Shown: positions 7,439 through 47,615 of the stretch, piece by piece
Position numbering within the stretch: the stretch's first letter is position 1
How the letters are laid out: the number at the start of each line of letters is the position of its first letter
Origin: a phage
DNA: 64,000 bases
Sequence record: PZ386970.1
Strand: one strand, 5' to 3'
The notes under the pieces: generated by a model
The model's input: only the letters and a program-made list of their open reading frames with translations
Databases searched by the model: none
What the model was told of the DNA's origin: nothing
Program-made: the position numbers and the translations under genes

Positions 7439-8251
7439 ATGATCAAAGAACAACTTTTGAAAGAAGCTCAGAACATCGAGACTTCAGTTGCTCTTAATAG
7501 TGTTTTCGAATCAGTAGAACTGTCTCCGGACGTTAAAGCTAATTTCAGCACTGTATTCGAAGCCACCGTTAAGCAGGAAGCAGTCAAACTGGCTGAATCT
7601 CATATCAAAGCTATCGCCGAAAAAGCCGAAGAAGAAGTTGAAAAGGCTAAAGAAGACGCTGAAGAGAAAGCTGATAAAAAATTGGCTGAACAAGCTTCTA
7701 AATTCCTAGACCATCTTGCAAAAGAATGGCTCACAGAAAACCAAATCGCAGTTGATAAAGGCATTAAAGCTGATTTGTTTGAATCCATGCTTGGTGGTCT
7801 GAAAGAACTGTTTGTTGAACATAACGTTGTTGTTCCAGAAGAATCTGTAGATGTTGTAGCAGAAATGGAAGAAGAGCTGGCCGAACATAAAGAAGAAACC
7901 GCTCGTTTGTTCGAAGAAGTTACCAAACGTGATGCATATATCAATTACGTTCAGCGTGAAACCGCTATTAATGAAAGCGTAAAAGACCTGACTGAATCTC
8001 AGAAAGAAAAAGTTATTGGCCTGGTTGAAGGTATGGATTATTCTGACGCATTTGGTACTAAGTTAACTGCTATTGTAGAAATGGTTAAAGGTTCTACTAA
8101 AGAAGAAGCCGCTATTACCGAAAGTATAAATACAGTTGACAATGACGCTGCCGGTCTTAATTTTGTTGCCGAAGCAGTTGACACTACCACAACTCAGGTA
8201 GAACAGAATTCTAATGTAAGTTTATATGCGAAAGTCGCATCTCGTTTCTAA
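7439..8251 (+). CDS. 22: Prohead core scaffold protein
   Basis: 270-aa highly acidic, helical ORF (E/K/A rich) in gp22 position; TATAAATA at 7401-7408. Confidence 0.88.
   Translation: MIKEQLLKEAQNIETSVALNSVFESVELSPDVKANFSTVFEATVKQEAVKLAESHIKAIAEKAEEEVEKAKEDAEEKADKKLAEQASKFLDHLAKEWLTENQIAVDKGIKADLFESMLGGLKELFVEHNVVVPEESVDVVAEMEEELAEHKEETARLFEEVTKRDAYINYVQRETAINESVKDLTESQKEKVIGLVEGMDYSDAFGTKLTAIVEMVKGSTKEEAAITESINTVDNDAAGLNFVAEAVDTTTTQVEQNSNVSLYAKVASRF
8125..8132 (+). promoter_or_regulatory. Late promoter TATAAATA (gene 23), inside the gene 22 3' end
   Basis: Exact TATAAATA about 137 bp upstream of the gene 23 ATG. Confidence 0.5.
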
Positions 8252-10260: not shown

Positions 10261-11541
10261 ATGAGTAAAATCCAAAAATTATTGCGTGAATCTACAACGT
10301 CTACTAGCAACTCAATCGGTCGCCCAAATCTCGTTGCTTTGACTCGCGCTACGACTAAATTAATATATTCTGACATTGTAGCAACACAAAGAACTAATCA
10401 ACCTGTTGCTGCTTTTTATGGTATTAAATATCTTAACCCAGATAACGAATTCACATTTAAAACCGGCGCTACTTATGCTGGCGAAGTTGGATATGTGGAC
10501 CGAGAAAAAATTACTGAGCTCACAGAAGAATCAAAAGCCACACTAAATAAAGGCGATTTTTTCAAATATAATAATATCGTCTATAAAGTGTTAGAAGATA
10601 CACCATTTGCAGATATTCAAGAAAGTGATCTAGAATTAGCTCTTCAGATTGCAGTCGTTCATTTAAAGGTACGGTTATTTTCAGATGCAGCGGTAACAAG
10701 CAAATTTGAAAGCTCTGGTAGCGAAATTTCTGATGCAAGATTCCAGATTAATAAATGGCAAACTTCAGTCAAATCACGTAAACTTAAAACTGGCCTCACG
10801 GTCGAATTAGCGCAAGATTTGGAAGCGAATGGATTTGATGCCCCTAACTTCTTAGAAGATTTGCTTGCTACTGAAATGGCTGATGAAATTAATAAAGATA
10901 TTCTTCAGTCTTTAATTACTGTATCGAAACGTTATAAAGTTACTGGAATTACTGACACCGGATTTATTGACTTGAGTTATGCGTCTGCTCCGGAAGCAGG
11001 TCGTTCGTTATATCGAATGGTGTGTGAAATGGTATCACACATTCAAAAAGAGTCAACTTATACTGCAACGTTTTGCGTAGCTTCAGCTCGTGCAGCTGCT
11101 ATTCTTGCTGCTTCGGGTTGGTTAAAACATAAACCAGAAGATGATAAGTATCTTTCACAAAATGCTTATGGATTCTTGGCAAATGGATTACCTCTTTACT
11201 GCGATACCAACAGTCCGTTAGATTATGTTATTGTGGGTGTTGTAGAAAATATCGGCGAAAAAGAGATTGTAGGGTCCATCTTTTATGCTCCATACACTGA
11301 AGGAATGGATTTAGACGACCCGGAACATGTCGGTGCATTTAAAGTTGTAGTTGATCCGGAAAGCTTACAACCGTCTATAGGTTTATTGGTTAGATATGCT
11401 TTATCAGCAAATCCTTACACAGTAGCAAAAGATGAAAAAGAAGCGAGAGTAATTGATGGCGGGGACATGGATAAAATGGCAGGACGTTCAGACTTGTCTG
11501 TTTTACTCGGTGTTAAATTGCCTAAAATTATTATAGATTAA
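10261..11541 (+). CDS. 24: Head vertex protein
   Basis: 426-aa ORF (T4 gp24 427 aa); TATAAATA at 10226-10233; terminator downstream. Confidence 0.93.
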   Translation: MSKIQKLLRESTTSTSNSIGRPNLVALTRATTKLIYSDIVATQRTNQPVAAFYGIKYLNPDNEFTFKTGATYAGEVGYVDREKITELTEESKATLNKGDFFKYNNIVYKVLEDTPFADIQESDLELALQIAVVHLKVRLFSDAAVTSKFESSGSEISDARFQINKWQTSVKSRKLKTGLTVELAQDLEANGFDAPNFLEDLLATEMADEINKDILQSLITVSKRYKVTGITDTGFIDLSYASAPEAGRSLYRMVCEMVSHIQKESTYTATFCVASARAAAILAASGWLKHKPEDDKYLSQNAYGFLANGLPLYCDTNSPLDYVIVGVVENIGEKEIVGSIFYAPYTEGMDLDDPEHVGAFKVVVDPESLQPSIGLLVRYALSANPYTVAKDEKEARVIDGGDMDKMAGRSDLSVLLGVKLPKIIID

Positions 11542-11542
11542 T

Positions 11543-11569
11543 AAAAAGGGACCTTACGGTCCCTTTTTC
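11543..11569. terminator. Bidirectional terminator between gene 24 and rnlB
   Basis: AAAAAGGGACC-TTAC-GGTCCCTTTTT; A-tract and T-tract flank a 6-bp stem. Confidence 0.75.
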
Positions 11570-11570
11570 G

Positions 11571-12569
11571 TTATGATACTAATTCAATCCATGCAGGACG
11601 CAGAACATCTTGCACCATTCGGACTAATTCTTTCTTAACAAGATTCGGATTATCAGATGATGTTAATACAATACCTTCACGAGAAGTTTCTTCCAGAATA
11701 TCTTGAACAGTCAATCCCATCACTTTGCCAAAATCTTTTGGCGTTACTGTCCCAATCTTAGAAATCACATTATTAACACGATTTAATGTAACATAACAAG
11801 CTAGAACATCAAGCAAGTTTTTGTCAATTTCGGTTAATGGGACCTGAGTTTTAATAGGCTTATCAGACTTTTTCTTTTCACTGAATTTAGAGTTCTTGCA
11901 CTTAATAGCTACACGAGTACCGTTTGGCAGCCATTTAGGGAAACAAGGTTTCAGAACATAACCTTCCGCAGTATTATCACCAATAACATAAGCATCAAAT
12001 ACACAATTATTTGCTTCGACAAGGTCTTCTGATGCAGTAGCATTATAAGCGGCTAAGACGGAATCAAGGTCGTTTGGAATCATGATAAGAGAATCAAATG
12101 TTCCACGTCCAAGCATTGGTGCCATTTTAAAACCGAATTCATTACAGATATCTTGCATTTCGTAATCGGTCAAATACGTATTATCACCACTTTCTGTATT
12201 GATAAGGATATCGAACACATAAAAATCTTTTTCACCGTAGTCAACACCTTTCTGGATTCCACCACCAGCGAATTCACCAAATACTTGATATGATACTGCT
12301 CGAGCTGTATACATGAATTCCTGAACGGCTTTAATAGCCTTATCATACTTCTTGAGTACGATTTCATAACCATAAAAATCTTCTGCTGGAAGAATAGGGC
12401 CTGTGCGCTTGGCGCATGTGACGTTGTCACGTTCAATTATTAACGAGAAGTTAGTCCCATGGATTTTCTCACGTGCTACCCAAACACCAGTAGTCAAACC
12501 ATTAGTGTAGAGTTTTTCAATAAACTTAGAGTTGTAGTGGTTTTCAAGACTGCTGTATTTCTTAAACAT
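11571..12569 (-). CDS. rnlB: RNA ligase 2
   Basis: 332-aa ORF; N-terminus [21 protein letters not shown]... and C-terminus ...[14 protein letters not shown] match T4 Rnl2 from memory, including the nucleotidyltransferase lysine motif region EKIHGTNFS. Confidence 0.92.
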
Positions 12570-25522: not shown

Positions 25523-25552
25523 ATAGTATCACACATCCATGTGCTTGTAAAC
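25523..25552 (-). promoter_or_regulatory. Early promoter motif (GTTTAC-N18-TACTAT) at the 3' end of alt
   Basis: Minus-strand GTTTACAAGCACATGGATGTGTGATACTATCATCC upstream of the ORF starting at 25493. Confidence 0.45.
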
Positions 25553-29651: not shown

Positions 29652-30467
29652 TTAACAATTTATAGACCAAGTCCATTTAGACGAATCTAAAGGAAAGTTT
29701 TGAATCGTCCACCATGGCCGCATATCGGTTGGTCCTTGGGTTCGCCAGGTATACGGATTCGACGGAGCGCCAATTTGATTAGGCCATGCACCTGGACTTG
29801 TTGCACCAGATTCTTTAAGTAAATCCGCCAATCGTTTTAAAAGGTCTTCACGATCTGAATCTGAATTATGCTCGGGTGGAACCAAACGAGATTCAATATC
29901 ATCCCACGTGTGCACACGTTGTGCAGTACGAGGAATATCATCACGTTCACCACGAGCCAACCAATAAATCGGTACATTAAGAATTTCTGCCGCATGGTCA
30001 CAGTGATGAGCTAAATCGTCAACGTAACAAATCACGTTATATTTTGTTTTAGCTAGTTCGAATAATTGTTCCTTTGAAGAATCATGACCACACATCATTA
30101 CTTCAGAAAAGGCGCCTGGGAACAAAGCATTCAAATTAAATTGTCTATTCAATCGAGCATCAATTGAATCACCTAGCGCCGTCACGGCTACAAAATTATA
30201 GTCTTCTTTTAGTTTATTGATAACTCGAAGAGCATCCGAATAAGGCGCTAAGTAACGAATAAAATCAGAGCGATTATATTTTTCTATTAATTGTTTACCG
30301 AGGTTATCATCGGTATTGAATAGTTTACCAGGAGAAATAAATTTTTCGTCCTGAATCATTTTTAAAATATGTTCTAATGGAAGATTATATTTTTGGGCAA
30401 AATAAGGAAGTCCAGATTGCCAGCTTAAACATACACCATCAATATCAGTCAAAATAGTAGGCTTCAT
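29652..30467 (-). CDS. HAD-superfamily phosphatase / 5'(3')-deoxyribonucleotidase-like protein with Trp-rich C-terminal tail
   Basis: 271-aa ORF; HAD motif I DIDGV at N-terminus and motif IV YVDD; 30.2 position. Confidence 0.6.
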   Translation of the reverse strand: MKPTILTDIDGVCLSWQSGLPYFAQKYNLPLEHILKMIQDEKFISPGKLFNTDDNLGKQLIEKYNRSDFIRYLAPYSDALRVINKLKEDYNFVAVTALGDSIDARLNRQFNLNALFPGAFSEVMMCGHDSSKEQLFELAKTKYNVICYVDDLAHHCDHAAEILNVPIYWLARGERDDIPRTAQRVHTWDDIESRLVPPEHNSDSDREDLLKRLADLLKESGATSPGAWPNQIGAPSNPYTWRTQGPTDMRPWWTIQNFPLDSSKWTWSINC

Positions 30468-30931
30468 AAAGAGTCTCTTAATAGGTTTAACACATCAATA
30501 AATTCAGCTTCGGTTAATATTGTATCATCTTTTGTTAGGTGGCTGGCCATGCTGTGCTTCAAAATTTTTCCTTTAGAGGCTTGTAAGGCATCGCGAAACC
30601 CCTTGTTTTGGATCGCTGCTTCAAAATATGCATTTGTATATAATTCTTTCCATGCTTCAGAGTATCTTGAAAATGGAACTCCTAACCAGAAGAGAGTCCC
30701 ATGGTCCTGAGCTCTTGCATAAGACCTTCCAGCTTGCTGTGCGGCCAGTCCTGACAGCCCAAATATACGTCTTTGTTGTTCAACATTTTTCACCTTACAT
30801 CCTTGGAGAAATCCTTCAAGACCTCCGAATTGAATACCATCCATAACAAAAGGCCATTTAGCAAAGTTACTTAATGCACATGACGGCCATTTGAAATTAC
30901 TTCTTATTTCTAATTCAGACATCTTTAACAC
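30464..30931 (-). CDS. NADAR / YbiA-like (DUF1768) protein
   Basis: 155-aa ORF; SNFAKWPFVMDGIQFGGLEGFLQGCK resembles the YbiA/NADAR signature SNF..P...DG....E.(Y/F)(F/L)Q..K; 30.3 position. Confidence 0.5.
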   Translation of the reverse strand: MLKMSELEIRSNFKWPSCALSNFAKWPFVMDGIQFGGLEGFLQGCKVKNVEQQRRIFGLSGLAAQQAGRSYARAQDHGTLFWLGVPFSRYSEAWKELYTNAYFEAAIQNKGFRDALQASKGKILKHSMASHLTKDDTILTEAEFIDVLNLLRDSL

Positions 30932-31133
30932 TTATAATTTCAACATCAGCCCAATGACCGTATCCAGGTATACGGTCTTCGATAGATAAATTTCTGTCAT
31001 TTTTAGGCATTTTAATTGACGTAACGTATGGTTCTAAACGGTTTTCCGCGTAATATGGAAAAACGTCGGTTACACGATAAGTAACTTCAATCATTTCCGT
31101 ACCAAACAATTTCTGGATTAATTTATTCAACAT
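30915..31133 (-). CDS. Hypothetical protein
   Basis: 72-aa ORF in the tightly packed - strand 30.x array. Confidence 0.45.
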   Translation of the reverse strand: MLNKLIQKLFGTEMIEVTYRVTDVFPYYAENRLEPYVTSIKMPKNDRNLSIEDRIPGYGHWADVEIISVKDV

Positions 31134-31320
31134 GTTTCAACCCTTTAATAGGAGATAACTCTTTACCCATACGTATATCAGAAGTCCCATCAACCCATTG
31201 AACGGCATACGCTTCGTTGATAATTCCAGCGGCGGTTTTAAATTCGTGGAGAACTTTAAAAATCATCCCAGGAATTCCAACACCTTTTAATTGGACTGTT
31301 TGTGCTATTAAAAATTTCAT
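31123..31320 (-). CDS. Hypothetical protein
   Basis: 65-aa ORF in the 30.x array. Confidence 0.45.
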   Translation of the reverse strand: MKFLIAQTVQLKGVGIPGMIFKVLHEFKTAAGIINEAYAVQWVDGTSDIRMGKELSPIKGLKHVE

Positions 31321-31374
31321 ATTTTTCCACTTACTAAAGAAATCATTATACTCTAATCCGTCCTTGGATGTAAA

Positions 31375-31995
31375 CTACTTAATGAAATTAATTTCTACCG
31401 GATGAACAACAGGTTGAGCAGTGATATATTGAGTAATTGCTTTCATGACTAGAGCTTCAGAACCAGGATTTTTCTCAACGAATTCACGTGCTTGGTTATG
31501 AGCTTCAAGTTCACTTAGTAAACCACTTCGTTGACATCCACGGTCTTGAGTACCCTGTTCAGATAAAAAGGCGACGATGTATTTTTCATCGTCATACGGT
31601 TTAGACGGTTGAGCAAATGTTCCTTTACTTCCAAAAGGAGAGTTATGACGCCACATCACGCCGTGAGGAGTTTCAACCTTCGTATATTCGTGCGGGCCAT
31701 TTTTCTTAGTTTCTTTCCATGGAACTTCATGGACATGGGTATTAGGATTAGGACATTCAATAAAATGCTCATCTAAATCAGTCGAGAATATTAAAGTAAA
31801 ACAATTACTGAATTTACCAACACCTGCCTGATAAATTTTACCTTCAGAAGTTCTAATTTCACAAACCGAGCCGACATCAGTAACTTCTAAAACTTCAAAA
31901 GGCTCGATAAGGTCATATGAGAACATGTTTTTAAGGCGTGGAGTAATATCCCCATTTTTAAAATTCATTTTATAAAAAGTATTAACTTTAAACAT
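31375..31995 (-). CDS. Hypothetical protein (206 aa)
   Basis: Long ORF with good coding appearance; no recognisable motif; larger than any T4 30.x gene at this position as I recall. Confidence 0.55.
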   Translation of the reverse strand: MFKVNTFYKMNFKNGDITPRLKNMFSYDLIEPFEVLEVTDVGSVCEIRTSEGKIYQAGVGKFSNCFTLIFSTDLDEHFIECPNPNTHVHEVPWKETKKNGPHEYTKVETPHGVMWRHNSPFGSKGTFAQPSKPYDDEKYIVAFLSEQGTQDRGCQRSGLLSELEAHNQAREFVEKNPGSEALVMKAITQYITAQPVVHPVEINFIK

Positions 31996-32030
31996 AATTT
32001 CCTCAATGGGAGCTTCGGCTCCCAGTTAAA

Positions 32031-32396
32031 TTAGATATCAAATTCGTTAAGAACTACATCAAAGATTGCTTCGAGATGTTCATGTTTAGCTCGGTTACTC
32101 AGGATATGACGAATCCAAGTTTTAACCAGAAGTTTACGATTAACACCGTTCCAGCAAGGATGAGTACCTAAATCACGTTGACGAAAATCATCATCCAGAG
32201 CGATTTTAAAGTTGGAACCTTCCATCGTGATTGAAACCGTGATGCCATTTTCAAATCGCATATAAACGTAATTAGGAGTCATATACTGTTCAATTTCGCA
32301 TACTGATCCATTTTGATGTTTCCATAAGCAAATAACTTCAGAAGAACCAGCGATACCGTTAGAAACATATTTGCGTTCGAAGTTGGTGTAGTTCAT
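32031..32396 (-). CDS. Hypothetical protein (30.7-like position)
   Basis: 121-aa ORF with early promoter motif upstream. Confidence 0.55.
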   Translation of the reverse strand: MNYTNFERKYVSNGIAGSSEVICLWKHQNGSVCEIEQYMTPNYVYMRFENGITVSITMEGSNFKIALDDDFRQRDLGTHPCWNGVNRKLLVKTWIRHILSNRAKHEHLEAIFDVVLNEFDI

Positions 32397-32437
32397 TTTA
32401 TTCTCCAGATGTTTAAGTTGTTTGTTGGTACAGGTCT

Positions 32438-32466
32438 ATAATATCATAACCTGTACCAAAGTAAAC
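32438..32466 (-). promoter_or_regulatory. Early promoter motif (GTTTAC-N17-TATTAT) embedded in an 11-bp perfect inverted repeat
   Basis: Minus-strand GTTTACTTTGGTACAGGTTATGATATTATAGACCTGTACC; inverted repeat arms TTGGTACAGGT / ACCTGTACCAA. Confidence 0.5.
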
Positions 32467-32470
32467 ATTT

Positions 32471-32842
32471 TTATTTGATTTTTGTCCACTTAGCTGAATC
32501 AATAACACCTTTTGCTTTAATCTTCTTGATTAATGACTCTGCACGATTTCTGGCATTTTCGTACCATACAACATCTTCAGAGTAACCAGTTTCTTCATCT
32601 TCGTAAGTTTTAGAACGAATACAACCATAAACTGTAGAATTCAGACGGTAAATTTCACCGGTGAAAAAGTTTTCTATTTCGATATGATAACAAAAATCAT
32701 CTGAAGGACCATCAGGAGTTGTACAATAAACCACATCACCTTGAACTGAACGAACCATCCATTGTAACTCGTTAACAACTTGAGATTTATATCCATCATG
32801 GTCACGGCATTTAATTGTAGCATTTAAATTGATAGTGTTCAT
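32471..32842 (-). CDS. Hypothetical protein (30.8-like position)
   Basis: 123-aa ORF with early promoter motif upstream. Confidence 0.55.
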   Translation of the reverse strand: MNTINLNATIKCRDHDGYKSQVVNELQWMVRSVQGDVVYCTTPDGPSDDFCYHIEIENFFTGEIYRLNSTVYGCIRSKTYEDEETGYSEDVVWYENARNRAESLIKKIKAKGVIDSAKWTKIK

Positions 32843-32883
32843 TTTATTCTCCGGTTGTTTTATTGATTAGGTGGTACAAGACT

Positions 32884-32912
32884 ATAGTAACACATCCTAC
32901 AGGAGAGTAAAC
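32884..32912 (-). promoter_or_regulatory. Early promoter motif (GTTTAC-N17-TACTAT)
   Basis: Minus-strand GTTTACTCTCCTGTAGGATGTGTTACTATAGTC upstream of the ORF starting at 32842. Confidence 0.5.
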
Positions 32913-32947
32913 ATCTTTTTTAAACTTTTTCTGCCCTAAACGCACAA

Positions 32948-32968
32948 AAGGGAGACCGAAGTCTCCCT
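32948..32968 (-). terminator. Terminator after the small basic ORF
   Basis: GGGAGAC-CGAA-GTCTCCC hairpin followed on the - strand by TTTTGTG. Confidence 0.65.
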
Positions 32969-32972
32969 AAAA

Positions 32973-33152
32973 TTATGCAACAACCTTTCCAAAACGAGAA
33001 GCATCATCTCGAAGAACTGCACGTGCTCTGCGCATGATCTTCTCAACTGTTTGATTAATACGAGAGTTCGACCCACGCTTGTATCCAGCGCGTTTAGAGG
33101 TACCATCAACTTTCTTTTCAACTGCTTTCTTTGCTTTAGCTTGTTTTGCCAT
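32973..33152 (-). CDS. Small lysine/arginine-rich protein (59 aa)
   Basis: Manual translation MAKQAKAKKAVEKKVDGTSKRAGYKRGSNSRINQTVEKIMRRARAVLRDDASRFGKVVA; below track cutoff; terminator hairpin immediately downstream. Confidence 0.4.
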   Translation of the reverse strand: MAKQAKAKKAVEKKVDGTSKRAGYKRGSNSRINQTVEKIMRRARAVLRDDASRFGKVVA

Positions 33153-33164
33153 TATAAATTCTCT

Positions 33165-33398
33165 TTAAATGAAAATGCAGGACTTATTGACATTGCCTGC
33201 GCAAGCCCTCAAGGGGAACATAGGTTTTGGATATTTAACGACAGGATAACCATAAACCTCGTCATCATACCAACCACGACTTAAACAGATAACCCTTTTC
33301 TGACGCGTGATAGTACAAATACATTCAAGAGGTACACCGTAAAATTGTCGGGGCGGTACTTCTAAAACATACCGATTCGCAAATCGATAATCAGACAA
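33165..33398 (-). CDS. Hypothetical protein
   Basis: 77-aa ORF between rIII and the small basic ORF. Confidence 0.45.
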   Translation of the reverse strand: MSDYRFANRYVLEVPPRQFYGVPLECICTITRQKRVICLSRGWYDDEVYGYPVVKYPKPMFPLRACAGNVNKSCIFI

Positions 33399-33420
33399 TT
33401 CGACGGCTCCTCGATTTAAC

Positions 33421-33669
33421 TTACTTCAGGGTAATAATAAAATGACGTACTGCTTTACGAGCTGCTGAAGCCAAAGGCTTAGCATATTTCAGTTCATCTT
33501 TTGCTTCCAGTTCAGTAGCCAGTGCGGCCTGGGCTGGGTTCAGATGTTTGAAATAACGCAGGATTTCAAGAGCTTCGGCTTCAACATCAATAGATGCGCC
33601 ATAGTTTTCATGACCGTTATTCCATGCGTTGCGTTGCAGTTCAAGAGCGTGTTGTAATTGTTTAATCAT
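33421..33669 (-). CDS. rIII: rIII lysis-inhibition accessory protein
   Basis: 82-aa ORF directly downstream of gene 31; size and position of T4 rIII. Confidence 0.75.
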   Translation of the reverse strand: MIKQLQHALELQRNAWNNGHENYGASIDVEAEALEILRYFKHLNPAQAALATELEAKDELKYAKPLASAARKAVRHFIITLK

Positions 33670-33793
33670 TTTAAATTCTCAATTCGAGATAATATTTAGT
33701 AGCCACGTTCGTCTGAATTTCACCTTCTTTCGACAAGTCTCTCAGTTGTAGGCTACCGCTTAGAAGAGTGTTCTCTTCATATAGTTATTTATA

Positions 33794-34126
33794 TCACTTA
33801 TAAAGACACGGAATAGCTTTATAGTGGCATGTTACGAATTTCTGTTTAATTTCTTTAGGTTGTTTAAGTCCCAAAGCCACAAATGGATGTGGAACATTTC
33901 GAATTTGTCCAACCGGTAGTGGAGTCAAATCACCGACTTCAACAAAACCTTCAGGAACATCAGGACCTACAGAATGAACTACACATAGTTCAGGAACTTC
34001 ACCTTGAACACGTTTACCAATCACAAGTCCTGATTCGGTAACTTCTTCATCACCTGCTTGAGCGGGTTCAGAAACCAAAATGACATATTCACCAACAGCA
34101 CGAATTGGGAGTTGTACTTCAGACAT
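33794..34126 (-). CDS. 31: gp31 co-chaperonin (GroES analogue)
   Basis: 110-aa ORF (T4 gp31 111 aa); synteny with rIII and cd. Confidence 0.85.
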
Positions 34127-34183
34127 CTTATTTCCTTGTTGTTTGACGATAGATTAATAATACCATACTATTCGTAAAGCATA

Positions 34184-34492
34184 TTACATAAGAAGCAAAC
34201 GTTCTACCGGAGTACCATCAACCGAAATTACTTTATCAAGACGGAAAGAACGCCACTGACCTAACTTGGTATCGAATGCTCGAACTGATTCGCGAGGTTC
34301 ATAACGAACTTCTGTTGCTGGATTGTTATTTTCATATTTGACTTCAAGTTCATCGCGCGAAGCAAACATAGTGCGTACCTCACCATTAGCCTTTTCAAAT
34401 ACAACACAATGAACGCCTACAGACAGAATAGTTTTAATACGTTCACGAAGAACCATAGTTTCTTGTTCAGTTAAAATCATATTATTCACCAC
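34184..34492 (-). CDS. Hypothetical protein (31.1 position)
   Basis: 102-aa ORF coupled to cd. Confidence 0.5.
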   Translation of the reverse strand: MVNNMILTEQETMVLRERIKTILSVGVHCVVFEKANGEVRTMFASRDELEVKYENNNPATEVRYEPRESVRAFDTKLGQWRSFRLDKVISVDGTPVERLLLM

Positions 34493-35063
34493 AAAAGTTT
34501 CGAATTTGTTCCCAATTCAGAGAACGAAGATTATTACGAGAGTACTGAATTACTTCAATACCAGCTTGTTTTAGAATGTCTGCCCAATTTTCAGGAGATC
34601 GGTCATATAATTCTGCATATACAACCTTTTTAATACCTGACTGCGTAATAGCTTTAGTGCAATCAGGACACGGAGAAAGCGTAGTATATAACGTAGCACC
34701 TTCAATAGAATTACCTTTACGAGCTGCAAACAAAATTGCATTCAATTCCGCATGGATTTCGTTATTAGCAGACCATGCACTATGAGCGGCCCGATGTTCT
34801 TTAGCCAAAACAAAATTATCCACCCGTCCAAATGCTGTAGTGCCTTCTTTATGCCCGGCAACGATGACCGGGCTTGGTTTATTCTTCAACCAACCGTTTT
34901 CGGATGCATGTTCGCAACAGTTTGTACCACCTGAAGGAGAGCCGTTATACCCAGTAGAGATAATGCGTCCATCTTTTTCAATGACCGCACCAACTTTCCA
35001 TGAACAACATTTTGATTCTTGAGAAATCAGATATGCAATCTGAAGGTATGTGCTAGCTTTCAT
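34482..35063 (-). CDS. cd: dCMP deaminase
   Basis: 193-aa ORF; zinc-binding deaminase motifs HAELNA and PCxxC; matches T4 Cd (193 aa). Confidence 0.95.
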   Translation of the reverse strand: MKASTYLQIAYLISQESKCCSWKVGAVIEKDGRIISTGYNGSPSGGTNCCEHASENGWLKNKPSPVIVAGHKEGTTAFGRVDNFVLAKEHRAAHSAWSANNEIHAELNAILFAARKGNSIEGATLYTTLSPCPDCTKAITQSGIKKVVYAELYDRSPENWADILKQAGIEVIQYSRNNLRSLNWEQIRNFCGE

Positions 35064-36412: not shown

Positions 36413-36441
36413 TTCGATTTCCTCATTGTGTTGGTAGAGTT

Positions 36442-36471
36442 ATAGTATCACAACTCCACCATGTTGTAAAC
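36442..36471 (-). promoter_or_regulatory. Early promoter motif (GTTTAC-N18-TACTAT)
   Basis: Minus-strand GTTTACAACATGGTGGAGTTGTGATACTATAACTC upstream of the ORF starting at 36412. Confidence 0.5.
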
Positions 36472-38537: not shown

Positions 38538-38594
38538 TTAGATTTCCTCAATTATCCATAGGAGCATTATACTCTGCTCCTGAGAGTTTGTAAA

Positions 38595-38819
38595 CTATTT
38601 TACTAAAGATTCAATATACTCGTGAAGAGCTTTAGTCGCTACTGCCCACTTATTCTGATATTCATTTTTCAGATTAGCACGAGACTGAACTAACAATCGG
38701 TCATTAGTCGGAGGCAAAGATTCTAATCGTTGAATCTGGCGCCCATAAATCATAGCCGCCATTTCAGATTCATAGATAAGCCCTTTAATGTATTCATGCT
38801 GTTCTTTAGTCATTGGCAT
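38595..38819 (-). CDS. Hypothetical protein
   Basis: 74-aa ORF. Confidence 0.45.
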   Translation of the reverse strand: MPMTKEQHEYIKGLIYESEMAAMIYGRQIQRLESLPPTNDRLLVQSRANLKNEYQNKWAVATKALHEYIESLVK

Positions 38820-41184: not shown

Positions 41185-41595
41185 CTACTTTTTCTTATGT
41201 TGGATATTCCAAGGCGGGTTGAACTTTTTGATAAAAAGTGGTTCTTCAAGGTCCATTGTTGCGATGGTCATTGAACCAAGTTCATTGGTGACTGAAAGGT
41301 CAAAACATTGGCGGGCCCAGAATTCAACCTTTTTGCCTTGCATTAAGGCATCCAAAATCATAAGTGATTTTCTTGAATCTGAAGTCTGGTCTTTTCGATT
41401 TATGGCTGTTCGATAATAGTTAATGCGTTTCTTTAAATTCTTGGTTTTACCAATATACACAAGTTCGTCATCTATAGCAATAGCGTATATGACATTTTTC
41501 TTATTAGGGACATCAACTGTTTTAATTGTTGCATCTTCTAATAGCTCCAATTCTGTATATTTAATAAAGGAATATTCGGCGGCAATATCTTTCAT
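41185..41595 (-). CDS. denA: Endonuclease II (host DNA degradation)
   Basis: 136-aa ORF (T4 DenA 136 aa); GIY-YIG-like N-terminus (VIYAIAIDDELVYIGKTKNLKKRINYY). Confidence 0.85.
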   Translation of the reverse strand: MKDIAAEYSFIKYTELELLEDATIKTVDVPNKKNVIYAIAIDDELVYIGKTKNLKKRINYYRTAINRKDQTSDSRKSLMILDALMQGKKVEFWARQCFDLSVTNELGSMTIATMDLEEPLFIKKFNPPWNIQHKKK

Positions 41596-47147: not shown

Positions 47148-47210
47148 TTTATTCTCCTCTTCACTTTTATTTGATAGGGCTATTATAACATAACCCTATC
47201 CGATTGTATA

Positions 47211-47615
47211 CTACTTTTTAAAAGTTTTTTGCAAAAGTTTGATGATTTCGTCGACGTTGGTTTCATCTACGATACAATGGATTTTTGTTACACCTAAAGT
47301 TATACCTTCGTTAGTAGGTTGAGGCTTTACTAAATCTACCTCAGTAAAGTACTCAATAAAGTATTTAAACTCGTCAGGATAAATCTCAAAATAAGTTTCA
47401 ATTTCACCACCGGCAGAACATACAGTACCATCTTCCATAGTTACACTTACTACGTTTGACGTATCGCTATCATAATCAGGTTCCATTCCGTTTACAACAA
47501 AACTAGGCCCGTGGAGTTCAATCAGTTTTAACATCTTAGCGTTATTATGTGGTGCTTCTTGAACAAAGTCGTCTTTAAATAAAGGGTTAATGATATAAGA
47601 TTTTCCGATTTCCAT
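47211..47615 (-). CDS. Hypothetical protein (frd.2 position)
   Basis: 134-aa ORF with early promoter motif upstream (47645-47673). Confidence 0.5.
   Translation of the reverse strand: MEIGKSYIINPLFKDDFVQEAPHNNAKMLKLIELHGPSFVVNGMEPDYDSDTSNVVSVTMEDGTVCSAGGEIETYFEIYPDEFKYFIEYFTEVDLVKPQPTNEGITLGVTKIHCIVDETNVDEIIKLLQKTFKK

Follow-up and report, generated by a model that had tools for sequence, protein, structure and literature searches.

The 11-bp inverted repeat at nt 32425-32459 of the phage DNA analysed here (64,000 nt of record PZ386970.1, hereafter the window) is, in the reading we favour, the DNA image of an RNA hairpin that would be formed only by read-through transcripts. The hairpin would fall in the published PeSL (promoter-early stem-loop) class and would most likely act as a 3'-end barrier at the boundary between genes 30.8 and 30.7; to this reading as a whole we give about an even chance. 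The palindrome is a conserved RNA-level feature of the promoter region and probably not a protein-binding site.

The window belongs to a T4-like phage of the genus Mosigvirus (best match DCP548, 96% identity over 1 kb), and the minus strand is the coding strand of all genes around the repeat. Gene 30.7 (nt 32031-32396, minus strand; 121 aa; Pfam Phage_T4_Gp30_7, PF06919, E = 7e-53) is separated by a 74-bp gap, in which the repeat sits, from gene 30.8 (nt 32471-32842, minus strand; 123 aa; Pfam Phage_30_8, PF06019, E = 7e-74). On this strand the 30.8 stop codon TAA (nt 32473-32471) is followed by aaat and then by a -35 hexamer of the T4 early-promoter form (GTTTAC, nt 32461-32466), with an A-rich, UP-like stretch upstream (nt 32467-32490) that overlaps the end of 30.8, TAA included. 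A 17-bp spacer leads to an extended -10 element (TGa plus TATTAT, nt 32438-32446, the hexamer at nt 32443-32438). The resulting early promoter (nt 32466-32438) is predicted to drive gene 30.7, and the orthologous site of Yersinia phage fPS-2 has been independently annotated as 'predicted early promoter'. From sequence geometry, transcription is expected to start at G32431, the seventh base after the -10. Downstream of the -10 the sense strand reads agACCTGTACCAA caaacaacttaaacatct GGAGAATAAAA, followed by the ATG at nt 32396-32394.

The perfect repeat described in the initial annotation proved exact, its arms TTGGTACAGGT (nt 32425-32435) and ACCTGTACCAA (nt 32449-32459) being 100% complementary over 11 bp with 13 nt between them. 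Read on the sense (minus) strand, the 5' arm TTGGTACAGGT (nt 32449-32459) falls within the -35/-10 spacer, at about -28 to -18 from the predicted start, the loop TATGATATTATAG (nt 32436-32448) holds the TGn and the -10 hexamer, and the 3' arm ACCTGTACCAA (nt 32425-32435) spans about -4 to +7, with the predicted start inside it. The -10 had therefore been correctly placed within the repeat, but on the wrong strand: promoter and genes belong to the minus strand, the 'CTATAAT' of the initial annotation is what one reads on the plus strand of the near-palindromic AT stretch that gives the functional TATTAT on the opposite strand, and the promoter scan listed no plus-strand promoter at the repeat. 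The 3' arm resembles agaCCTATCAAC, the conserved initially transcribed motif of T4-type early promoters. Since the 5' arm lies upstream of the predicted start, both arms would be present only on RNA initiated further upstream.

An outer imperfect repeat was also seen (nt 32409-32420 with nt 32457-32468), in which the -35 region (AUGUUUA) pairs with the leader (UAAACAU). In a variant group of the L008 type, TGTTTT/AAAACA replaces TGTTTA/TAAACA in this outer repeat, an exchange that looks compensatory.

The whole window has two perfect inverted repeats with arms of 11 bp or more and loops of 3-20 nt, against a mean of 0.48 in dinucleotide shuffles, a count that alone is just mildly unusual. In its local context the repeat is clearly non-random. 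The observed helix reaches 12 bp, including one G:U, a length attained in none of 300 intergenic shuffles, and the sense RNA folds with -19.9 kcal/mol (z = -3.7; none of 200 shuffles as good); in the local shuffles the promoter hexamers and the ribosome-binding region were kept fixed. Folding of the read-through RNA, proposed earlier as a check, gave the expected stem, with a mean pair probability of 0.91 in a 281-nt transcript. The other perfect 11-bp repeat of the window, AAAAAGGGACC ttac GGTCCCTTTTT (nt 11543-11568), is placed between convergent genes (nt 10261-11541, plus strand, and nt 11571-12569, minus strand) and looks like a bidirectional intrinsic terminator.

Read-through RNA would probably come from the early promoter of gene 30.8 (nt 32884-32912, minus strand; GTTTAC-17-TACTAT), about 450 nt upstream, so that the hairpin would be entered by transcripts of gene 30.8. 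Directly upstream of this promoter lies a canonical intrinsic terminator (GGGAGAC-TTCG-GTCTCCC-TTTTGTG, nt 32943-32967, minus strand), and the ATK48 record carries an annotated terminator at the matching place. On the downstream side, the Shine-Dalgarno (SD) region of 30.7, GGAGAATAAAA (nt 32396-32406, minus strand), follows the hairpin by 18 nt in an A-rich, unstructured leader, and agrees perfectly with GG*AGRAYARAA, the consensus of strong RegB cleavage sites (PMC3014915). A RegB consensus at the ribosome-binding site of 30.7 would predict rapid inactivation of its early message.

The promoters of gp30.7 homologues were compared in T4, Yersinia phage MHG19, Klebsiella phage Marfa, a Jiaodavirus, Enterobacter phages CIP9 and id4496 and a Proteus phage. 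Outside the T4 group, where protein identity drops to 45-55%, all six homologues have a GTTTAC-type promoter at the same place with a helix of 9-15 bp around the -10; T4 30.7 has the same promoter with a stem of 8-9 bp and an 8-bp core, GGTACAGG/CCTGTACC. A helix equally long was obtained by chance in local shuffles at a frequency of at most 0.007 in six of the eight sequences, the window among them, and of 0.07-0.09 in T4 and the Jiaodavirus; the short T4 stem has p about 0.1. Four families of arms were distinguished at these promoters, namely the TTGGTACAGG type (including the Marfa variant), the TTGGGTGGT type, the GCTGATTGA type and the CTCCGTTGTAT type. The arms are thus replaced wholesale between genera and the helix is retained, a result that speaks against the operator-like palindrome suggested in the initial annotation, for which a conserved or repeated recognition sequence would be expected. 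The window-type cassette itself occurs in one copy per genome in 704 phage records.

Column-wise covariation is confined to the window/T4/Marfa group, the helices of other genera standing in different registers. When the window/T4 group was set in register against Marfa, three pairs were found changed on both sides (A-U to G-C, C-G to U-A and U-A to A-U) and two further pairs had passed from G-C to G-U; 94.8% of the cells were paired, against 30-46% in slid controls. The comparison is supportive and not decisive, because all three double changes come from a single sequence. Within the T4/Mosigvirus group, conservation of the 3' arm could be due in part to promoter function, since this arm overlaps the promoter-proximal motif. 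The compensatory changes and the sense-strand G:U pairs speak for selection on an RNA structure of the sense strand.

The symmetry had been held to be unique to this copy of the early motif, and this was refuted by a survey in which the gaps upstream of minus-strand genes were folded and scanned for GTTTAC-type promoters. The same design is found in the window at two or more other early promoters, namely at nt 36432-36471 (minus strand; GTTTAC; arms TGGTGGAGTTGT / ATAACTCTACCA, 12 bp including a G:U, around the -10 TACTAT) and at nt 47173-47211 (minus strand; GTATAC; arms GATAGGGTTAT / ATAGCCCTATC, 11 bp including a U:G, around the -10 TATAAT). The former is the orthologue of T4 Pe133295, from which it differs by two one-sided, pair-preserving changes; the latter would correspond by position, judged from the order of the genes and the sizes of the ORFs, to the T4 frd.1 promoter. 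A weaker example (nt 38560-38595, minus strand) has a 7-bp perfect stem, AGGAGCA / TGCTCCT, around the -10 TATAAT, and short hairpins limited to the spacer were seen at the promoters whose -35 starts at nt 41185, 40001 and 25552. Since the arm sequences differ between copies, what is shared is an architecture and not a dispersed repeat.

Of 19 candidate promoters scanned in about 97 kb of T4, five show a significant helix around the -10 (-35 starts at 8218, 20612, 123093, 133331 and 166807). With window and T4 taken together, 1.6 of the 32 candidates would be expected to reach p<=0.05, and eight did so (binomial 1.4e-4). Each of the eight forms a longer helix with G:T pairs (sense wobble) permitted than with A:C pairs (antisense wobble; sign test 0.004). 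Selection on the sense-strand RNA would produce this pattern, and a protein-binding dyad or a two-stranded cruciform would not; a single-stranded DNA hairpin could give the same one-sided bias. The design follows gap length: in short gaps (54-74 nt) the hairpin is embedded in the promoter, whereas in long gaps (101-130 nt) a separate canonical terminator precedes the promoter. This suggests that the -10 comes to lie in the loop for the simple reason that spacer and first transcribed bases are the sole free positions in a fully packed gap.

Directly after the -10, a agaCCTATCAAC-like motif is shared by T4-type early promoters and forms the basis of the 3' arms of the embedded hairpins; examples are the minus-strand window promoters with the -35 at nt 25552, 47673, 10219 and 63999 and the T4 loci L001, L027 and L028. 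In the T4 record, 14 bp around the -10 of Pe133295 (T4 133300-133313, L001 11301-11314) are noted as having once been reported as the inverted complement. This stretch overlaps the loop of the embedded hairpin, and the discrepancy could reflect an old sequencing artefact at a hairpin or a genuine inversion between the arms.

The 30.7 element conforms to the PeSL class and adds one more example of a described kind. PeSLs are compact cassettes between genes of T4-like phages, in which a strong sigma-70-type early promoter is joined to a stem-loop (Arbiol et al. 2010, PMC2839356; Comeau et al. 2014, PMC4122927). The stem-loops commonly overlap the -10 box (PMC2839356), and the T-even promoter form, from PST and T4, is TTTACW-N17-TAYWAT with stem-loops drawn just upstream of the promoter (PMC4122927). 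The predicted 30.7 promoter, GTTTAC-17-TGaTATTAT, fits that form and has the A-rich stretch upstream and GGAG plus ATG downstream; its 11-bp perfect stem around the -10 places it in the -10-overlapping subclass, and further copies at small early genes are provided by the promoters at nt 36471 and 47211, by the weaker one at nt 38595 and by the spacer hairpins. As in the PeSLs of those reports, an AT-rich intergenic upstream stretch, the strong sigma-70-type early promoter and the stem-loop are combined with the SD and start codon of the gene downstream, and such portable cassettes are numerous per genome, lying at mosaic junctions in plastic regions of small early genes. In RB49 and phi1 the stem-loop likewise lies mostly between -35 and -10 or over the -10, but the stems of RB49 are made of G/C tracts, whereas here the sequence is mixed, the loop large and a U-tract lacking. 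The account of PST and T4 differs in giving upstream stem-loops and a loose AGNA/TCNT stem consensus; in the window copy, as at several promoters of T4, it is the -10 that the stem surrounds. Neither a G:U bias of the sense strand nor the preservation of a helix across genera at one orthologous promoter is mentioned in the portions of the two reports considered.

PeSLs have been reported to mark sites of module exchange, with crossovers mapped within or beside the stem-loops (PMC2839356), and the 30.7 locus shows such an association with indels, replacements and exchange of modules. DNA homology to most T4-group phages starts at the 30.7 stop codon and ends a few bases from the -35: 30.7 and its promoter are about 90% identical to the T4 group in DNA and gp30.7 is about 94-95% identical to that of T4, gp30.8 is 38% identical to its T4 counterpart, and the ORF that comes after 30.7 shows no relationship to T4 30.6. 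In viral contigs, three upstream variants and four leader variants are reassorted around a constant promoter-hairpin. A Marfa-type cassette (GTTTACaTTGGTGTAGG...CYTACACCAAC; L031 6652-6691, L049 3195-3234, L035 5931-5970) stands upstream of gp30.7 in one contig, of an unrelated 75-aa ORF in another and of an unrelated 256-aa ORF in CIP9, whose own 30.7 promoter has a different hairpin. Of the pattern matches in viral contigs, about half proved fortuitous and fell in unrelated DNA, and a blastn match of the cassette in Salmonella phage Melville was discarded as generic early-promoter similarity.

The favoured reading can be put together as follows. The gap is filled by the T4-type sigma-70 early promoter and the 30.7 ribosome-binding site, and the spacer and first transcribed bases, which RNA polymerase does not read base-specifically, have become complementary to each other, leaving the -10 in the loop. 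RNA from the own promoter would have its 5' end inside the 3' arm and would not fold, whereas RNA from the 30.8 promoter would fold in vivo into a hairpin of 11-12 bp, 11 nt past the 30.8 stop codon, and the polycistronic RNA would be punctuated at the 30.8/30.7 boundary. If the 30.7 leader were then cut, for example by RegB at the GGAG 18 nt downstream, the hairpin could keep 3'-to-5' exonucleases off the 30.8 message; in addition, it may act as a weak pause site or attenuator. With 11 nt to the stop codon on one side and 18 nt to the cut site on the other, the hairpin would be well placed as a barrier. Intercistronic stabiliser hairpins of the REP type, in bacterial operons, follow a stop codon, have no terminator features and block 3' exonucleases. 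The hairpin described here likewise comes just after a stop codon and without terminator features, its blocking role being putative, but it has no sequence relationship with REP elements and is embedded in a promoter. An Rfam scan of nt 32300-32600 gave nothing above threshold, its four matches being hairpin-like and due to chance (17-19 bits, the thresholds being 47-90), and a literature search for maps of T4 transcript ends or for an account of the 30.7 promoter found nothing usable.

The initial annotation had offered, as the other choice, a stem-loop in read-through RNA, exemplified by a termination or RNase III signal; its general form is upheld here, and both of the named examples fit poorly. 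The main rival to the barrier is an attenuator or terminator acting on polymerases that arrive from 30.8, with 30.7 expressed mainly from its own promoter. This was proposed by the PeSL authors: the sole PeSL stem-loop reported to have been put to experiment, a G/C-rich one of phage phi1/RB49, lowered lacZ expression about as much as rrnB T1 when placed between a strong promoter and the reporter, which pointed to termination (PMC2839356). The intercistronic position and the alternation, by gap length, of embedded hairpins and separate upstream terminators go in the same direction, and a stable intergenic hairpin at a cistron end is what intrinsic terminators have. For the 30.7 copy this role is doubtful because there is no U-tract: the 3' flank of the hairpin is CAACAAACAAC, and on the plus strand T-runs begin 8 nt past the stem. 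A loop of 11-13 nt and a stem of moderate GC content further led us to reject a classical intrinsic terminator; a terminator consensus scan of nt 30000-35000 gave no site at the repeat, and the same phage has distinct canonical terminators with GC-rich stems, UUCG loops and T-runs (nt 32967-32943 and upstream of the genes starting at nt 47615, 27639 and 13131). These features make attenuation less likely for the window copy, and we regard it as rather unlikely. Processing of the read-through RNA by RNase III would agree with a double-stranded segment between cistrons. E. coli RNase III substrates typically comprise about two helical turns, roughly 20 bp, so that the core stem of 11-12 bp has about half the usual length; the outer helix of -35 region and leader could extend it to about 18-20 interrupted pairs, but has little strength and is poorly conserved; we hold processing by RNase III to be very unlikely. 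For a dimeric repressor of the 30.7 promoter, the perfect dyad centred on the -10 has the geometry of classical operators. Pairing and not sequence is conserved among the orthologues, however, and the sister hairpins are imperfect as DNA dyads and good as sense RNA. In the window, the half-site GGTACAGG is limited to the two arms and one site inside a plus-strand gene, with no other intergenic copy, and each hairpin promoter has different arms and thus no shared recognition sequence. We consider an operator extremely improbable.

Two further explanations place the repeat outside RNA function. As a hairpin in single-stranded DNA it could be a recombination element, inducing breaks or crossovers during replication or recombination, with a PeSL-type shuffling of modules as its main role. 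The mosaic junction at the -35 edge, the reassorted flanks, the cassette in front of unrelated genes and the inverted-complement remark on the T4 orthologue of the nt 36471 promoter are in accordance with this, as are the crossovers described within or beside PeSL stem-loops (PMC2839356). Homology alone, however, explains crossovers, so that the hairpin is not required; loops of 6-16 nt disfavour cruciform extrusion, and a helix kept through complete sequence turnover suggests a function for the phage and not a by-product, which leaves this explanation with a low probability. The repeat could also be neutral, a chance complementarity hitch-hiking with a conserved promoter: about 0.5 such repeats are expected per window, the arms are nearly invariant in the T4/Mosigvirus group and make local conservation uninformative, and the T4 stem is just marginally significant. 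Neutrality is disfavoured by the persistence of an equally placed helix, built from different arm families, in at least six other lineages and by the class-wide enrichment, the strand-specific wobble and the compensatory changes; we likewise hold it to be improbable.

Hiding of the 30.7 ribosome-binding site was considered for the window and rejected. Given the predicted start, local transcripts would lack the 5' arm, as translational occlusion demands, but neither SD nor start codon is sequestered by the 3' arm: the SD lies 18 nt past the stem and is no less accessible on read-through RNA (unpaired probability 0.65, against 0.45 on RNA from the own promoter). Elsewhere the SD does fall within the 3' arm of a helix of 11-15 bp, namely at 30.7 of the id4496/Proteus type (L021, L024), at T4 alt.-3 (-35 at 123093; L001 1094, upstream of the gene) and at T4 ndd.4 (-35 at 166807; L027 32807, upstream of the gene). 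At these promoters the unpaired probability of the SD is 0.28-0.38 on read-through and 0.61-0.71 on promoter-proximal RNA. Because the 3' arm contains the SD, read-through RNA of the alt.-3, ndd.4 and id4496/Proteus type is predicted to be poorly translated. A comparable arrangement is known for the T4 genes e, soc, 49 and I-TevI, with inhibitory leader hairpins and an internal late promoter (PMC3014915). As here, the promoter lies in or beside the 5' arm and the structure separates transcripts by origin; there, the 3' arm sequesters the SD or AUG and the promoter is late, whereas at 30.7 the promoter is early and the SD accessible.

Tentatively, about one quarter of T-even early promoters may be buried in sense hairpins of read-through RNA, which would amount to a genome-wide discrimination of transcripts by origin; we consider this possible rather than probable. 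If true, read-through copies could be protected from RegB or exposed to it, translationally silenced if the SD is covered by the 3' arm, or given a protected 3' end, the logic of the late promoters of e, soc, 49 and I-TevI would be extended to the timing of early genes, and the shut-off and timing of T4 early genes, still incompletely understood, would gain a post-transcriptional layer. For the present, the contribution is an incremental addition to a described class, and connects a locus of Mosigvirus with modular gene shuffling as conceived in the PeSL model. As many T4-type early promoters share the design, the spacer and the first transcribed bases should be handled in reporter and engineering work as one functional pair.

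Two other structured places were noted near the 30.7 locus. A GC-rich hairpin GGGAGC-cgaa-GCTCCC (nt 32008-32023, minus strand) directly follows the stop codon of 30.7, a short way ahead of the next SD; it has no T-run, and at its ATK48 counterpart a Rho-independent terminator is annotated. Between the homologues of rIII and 30.9, a gap of 268 nt (nt 33153-33420, minus strand) has a very stable predicted fold (-66 kcal/mol) and as sole content a 77-aa ORF with a TTG start, and may contain a missed gene or a structured RNA.
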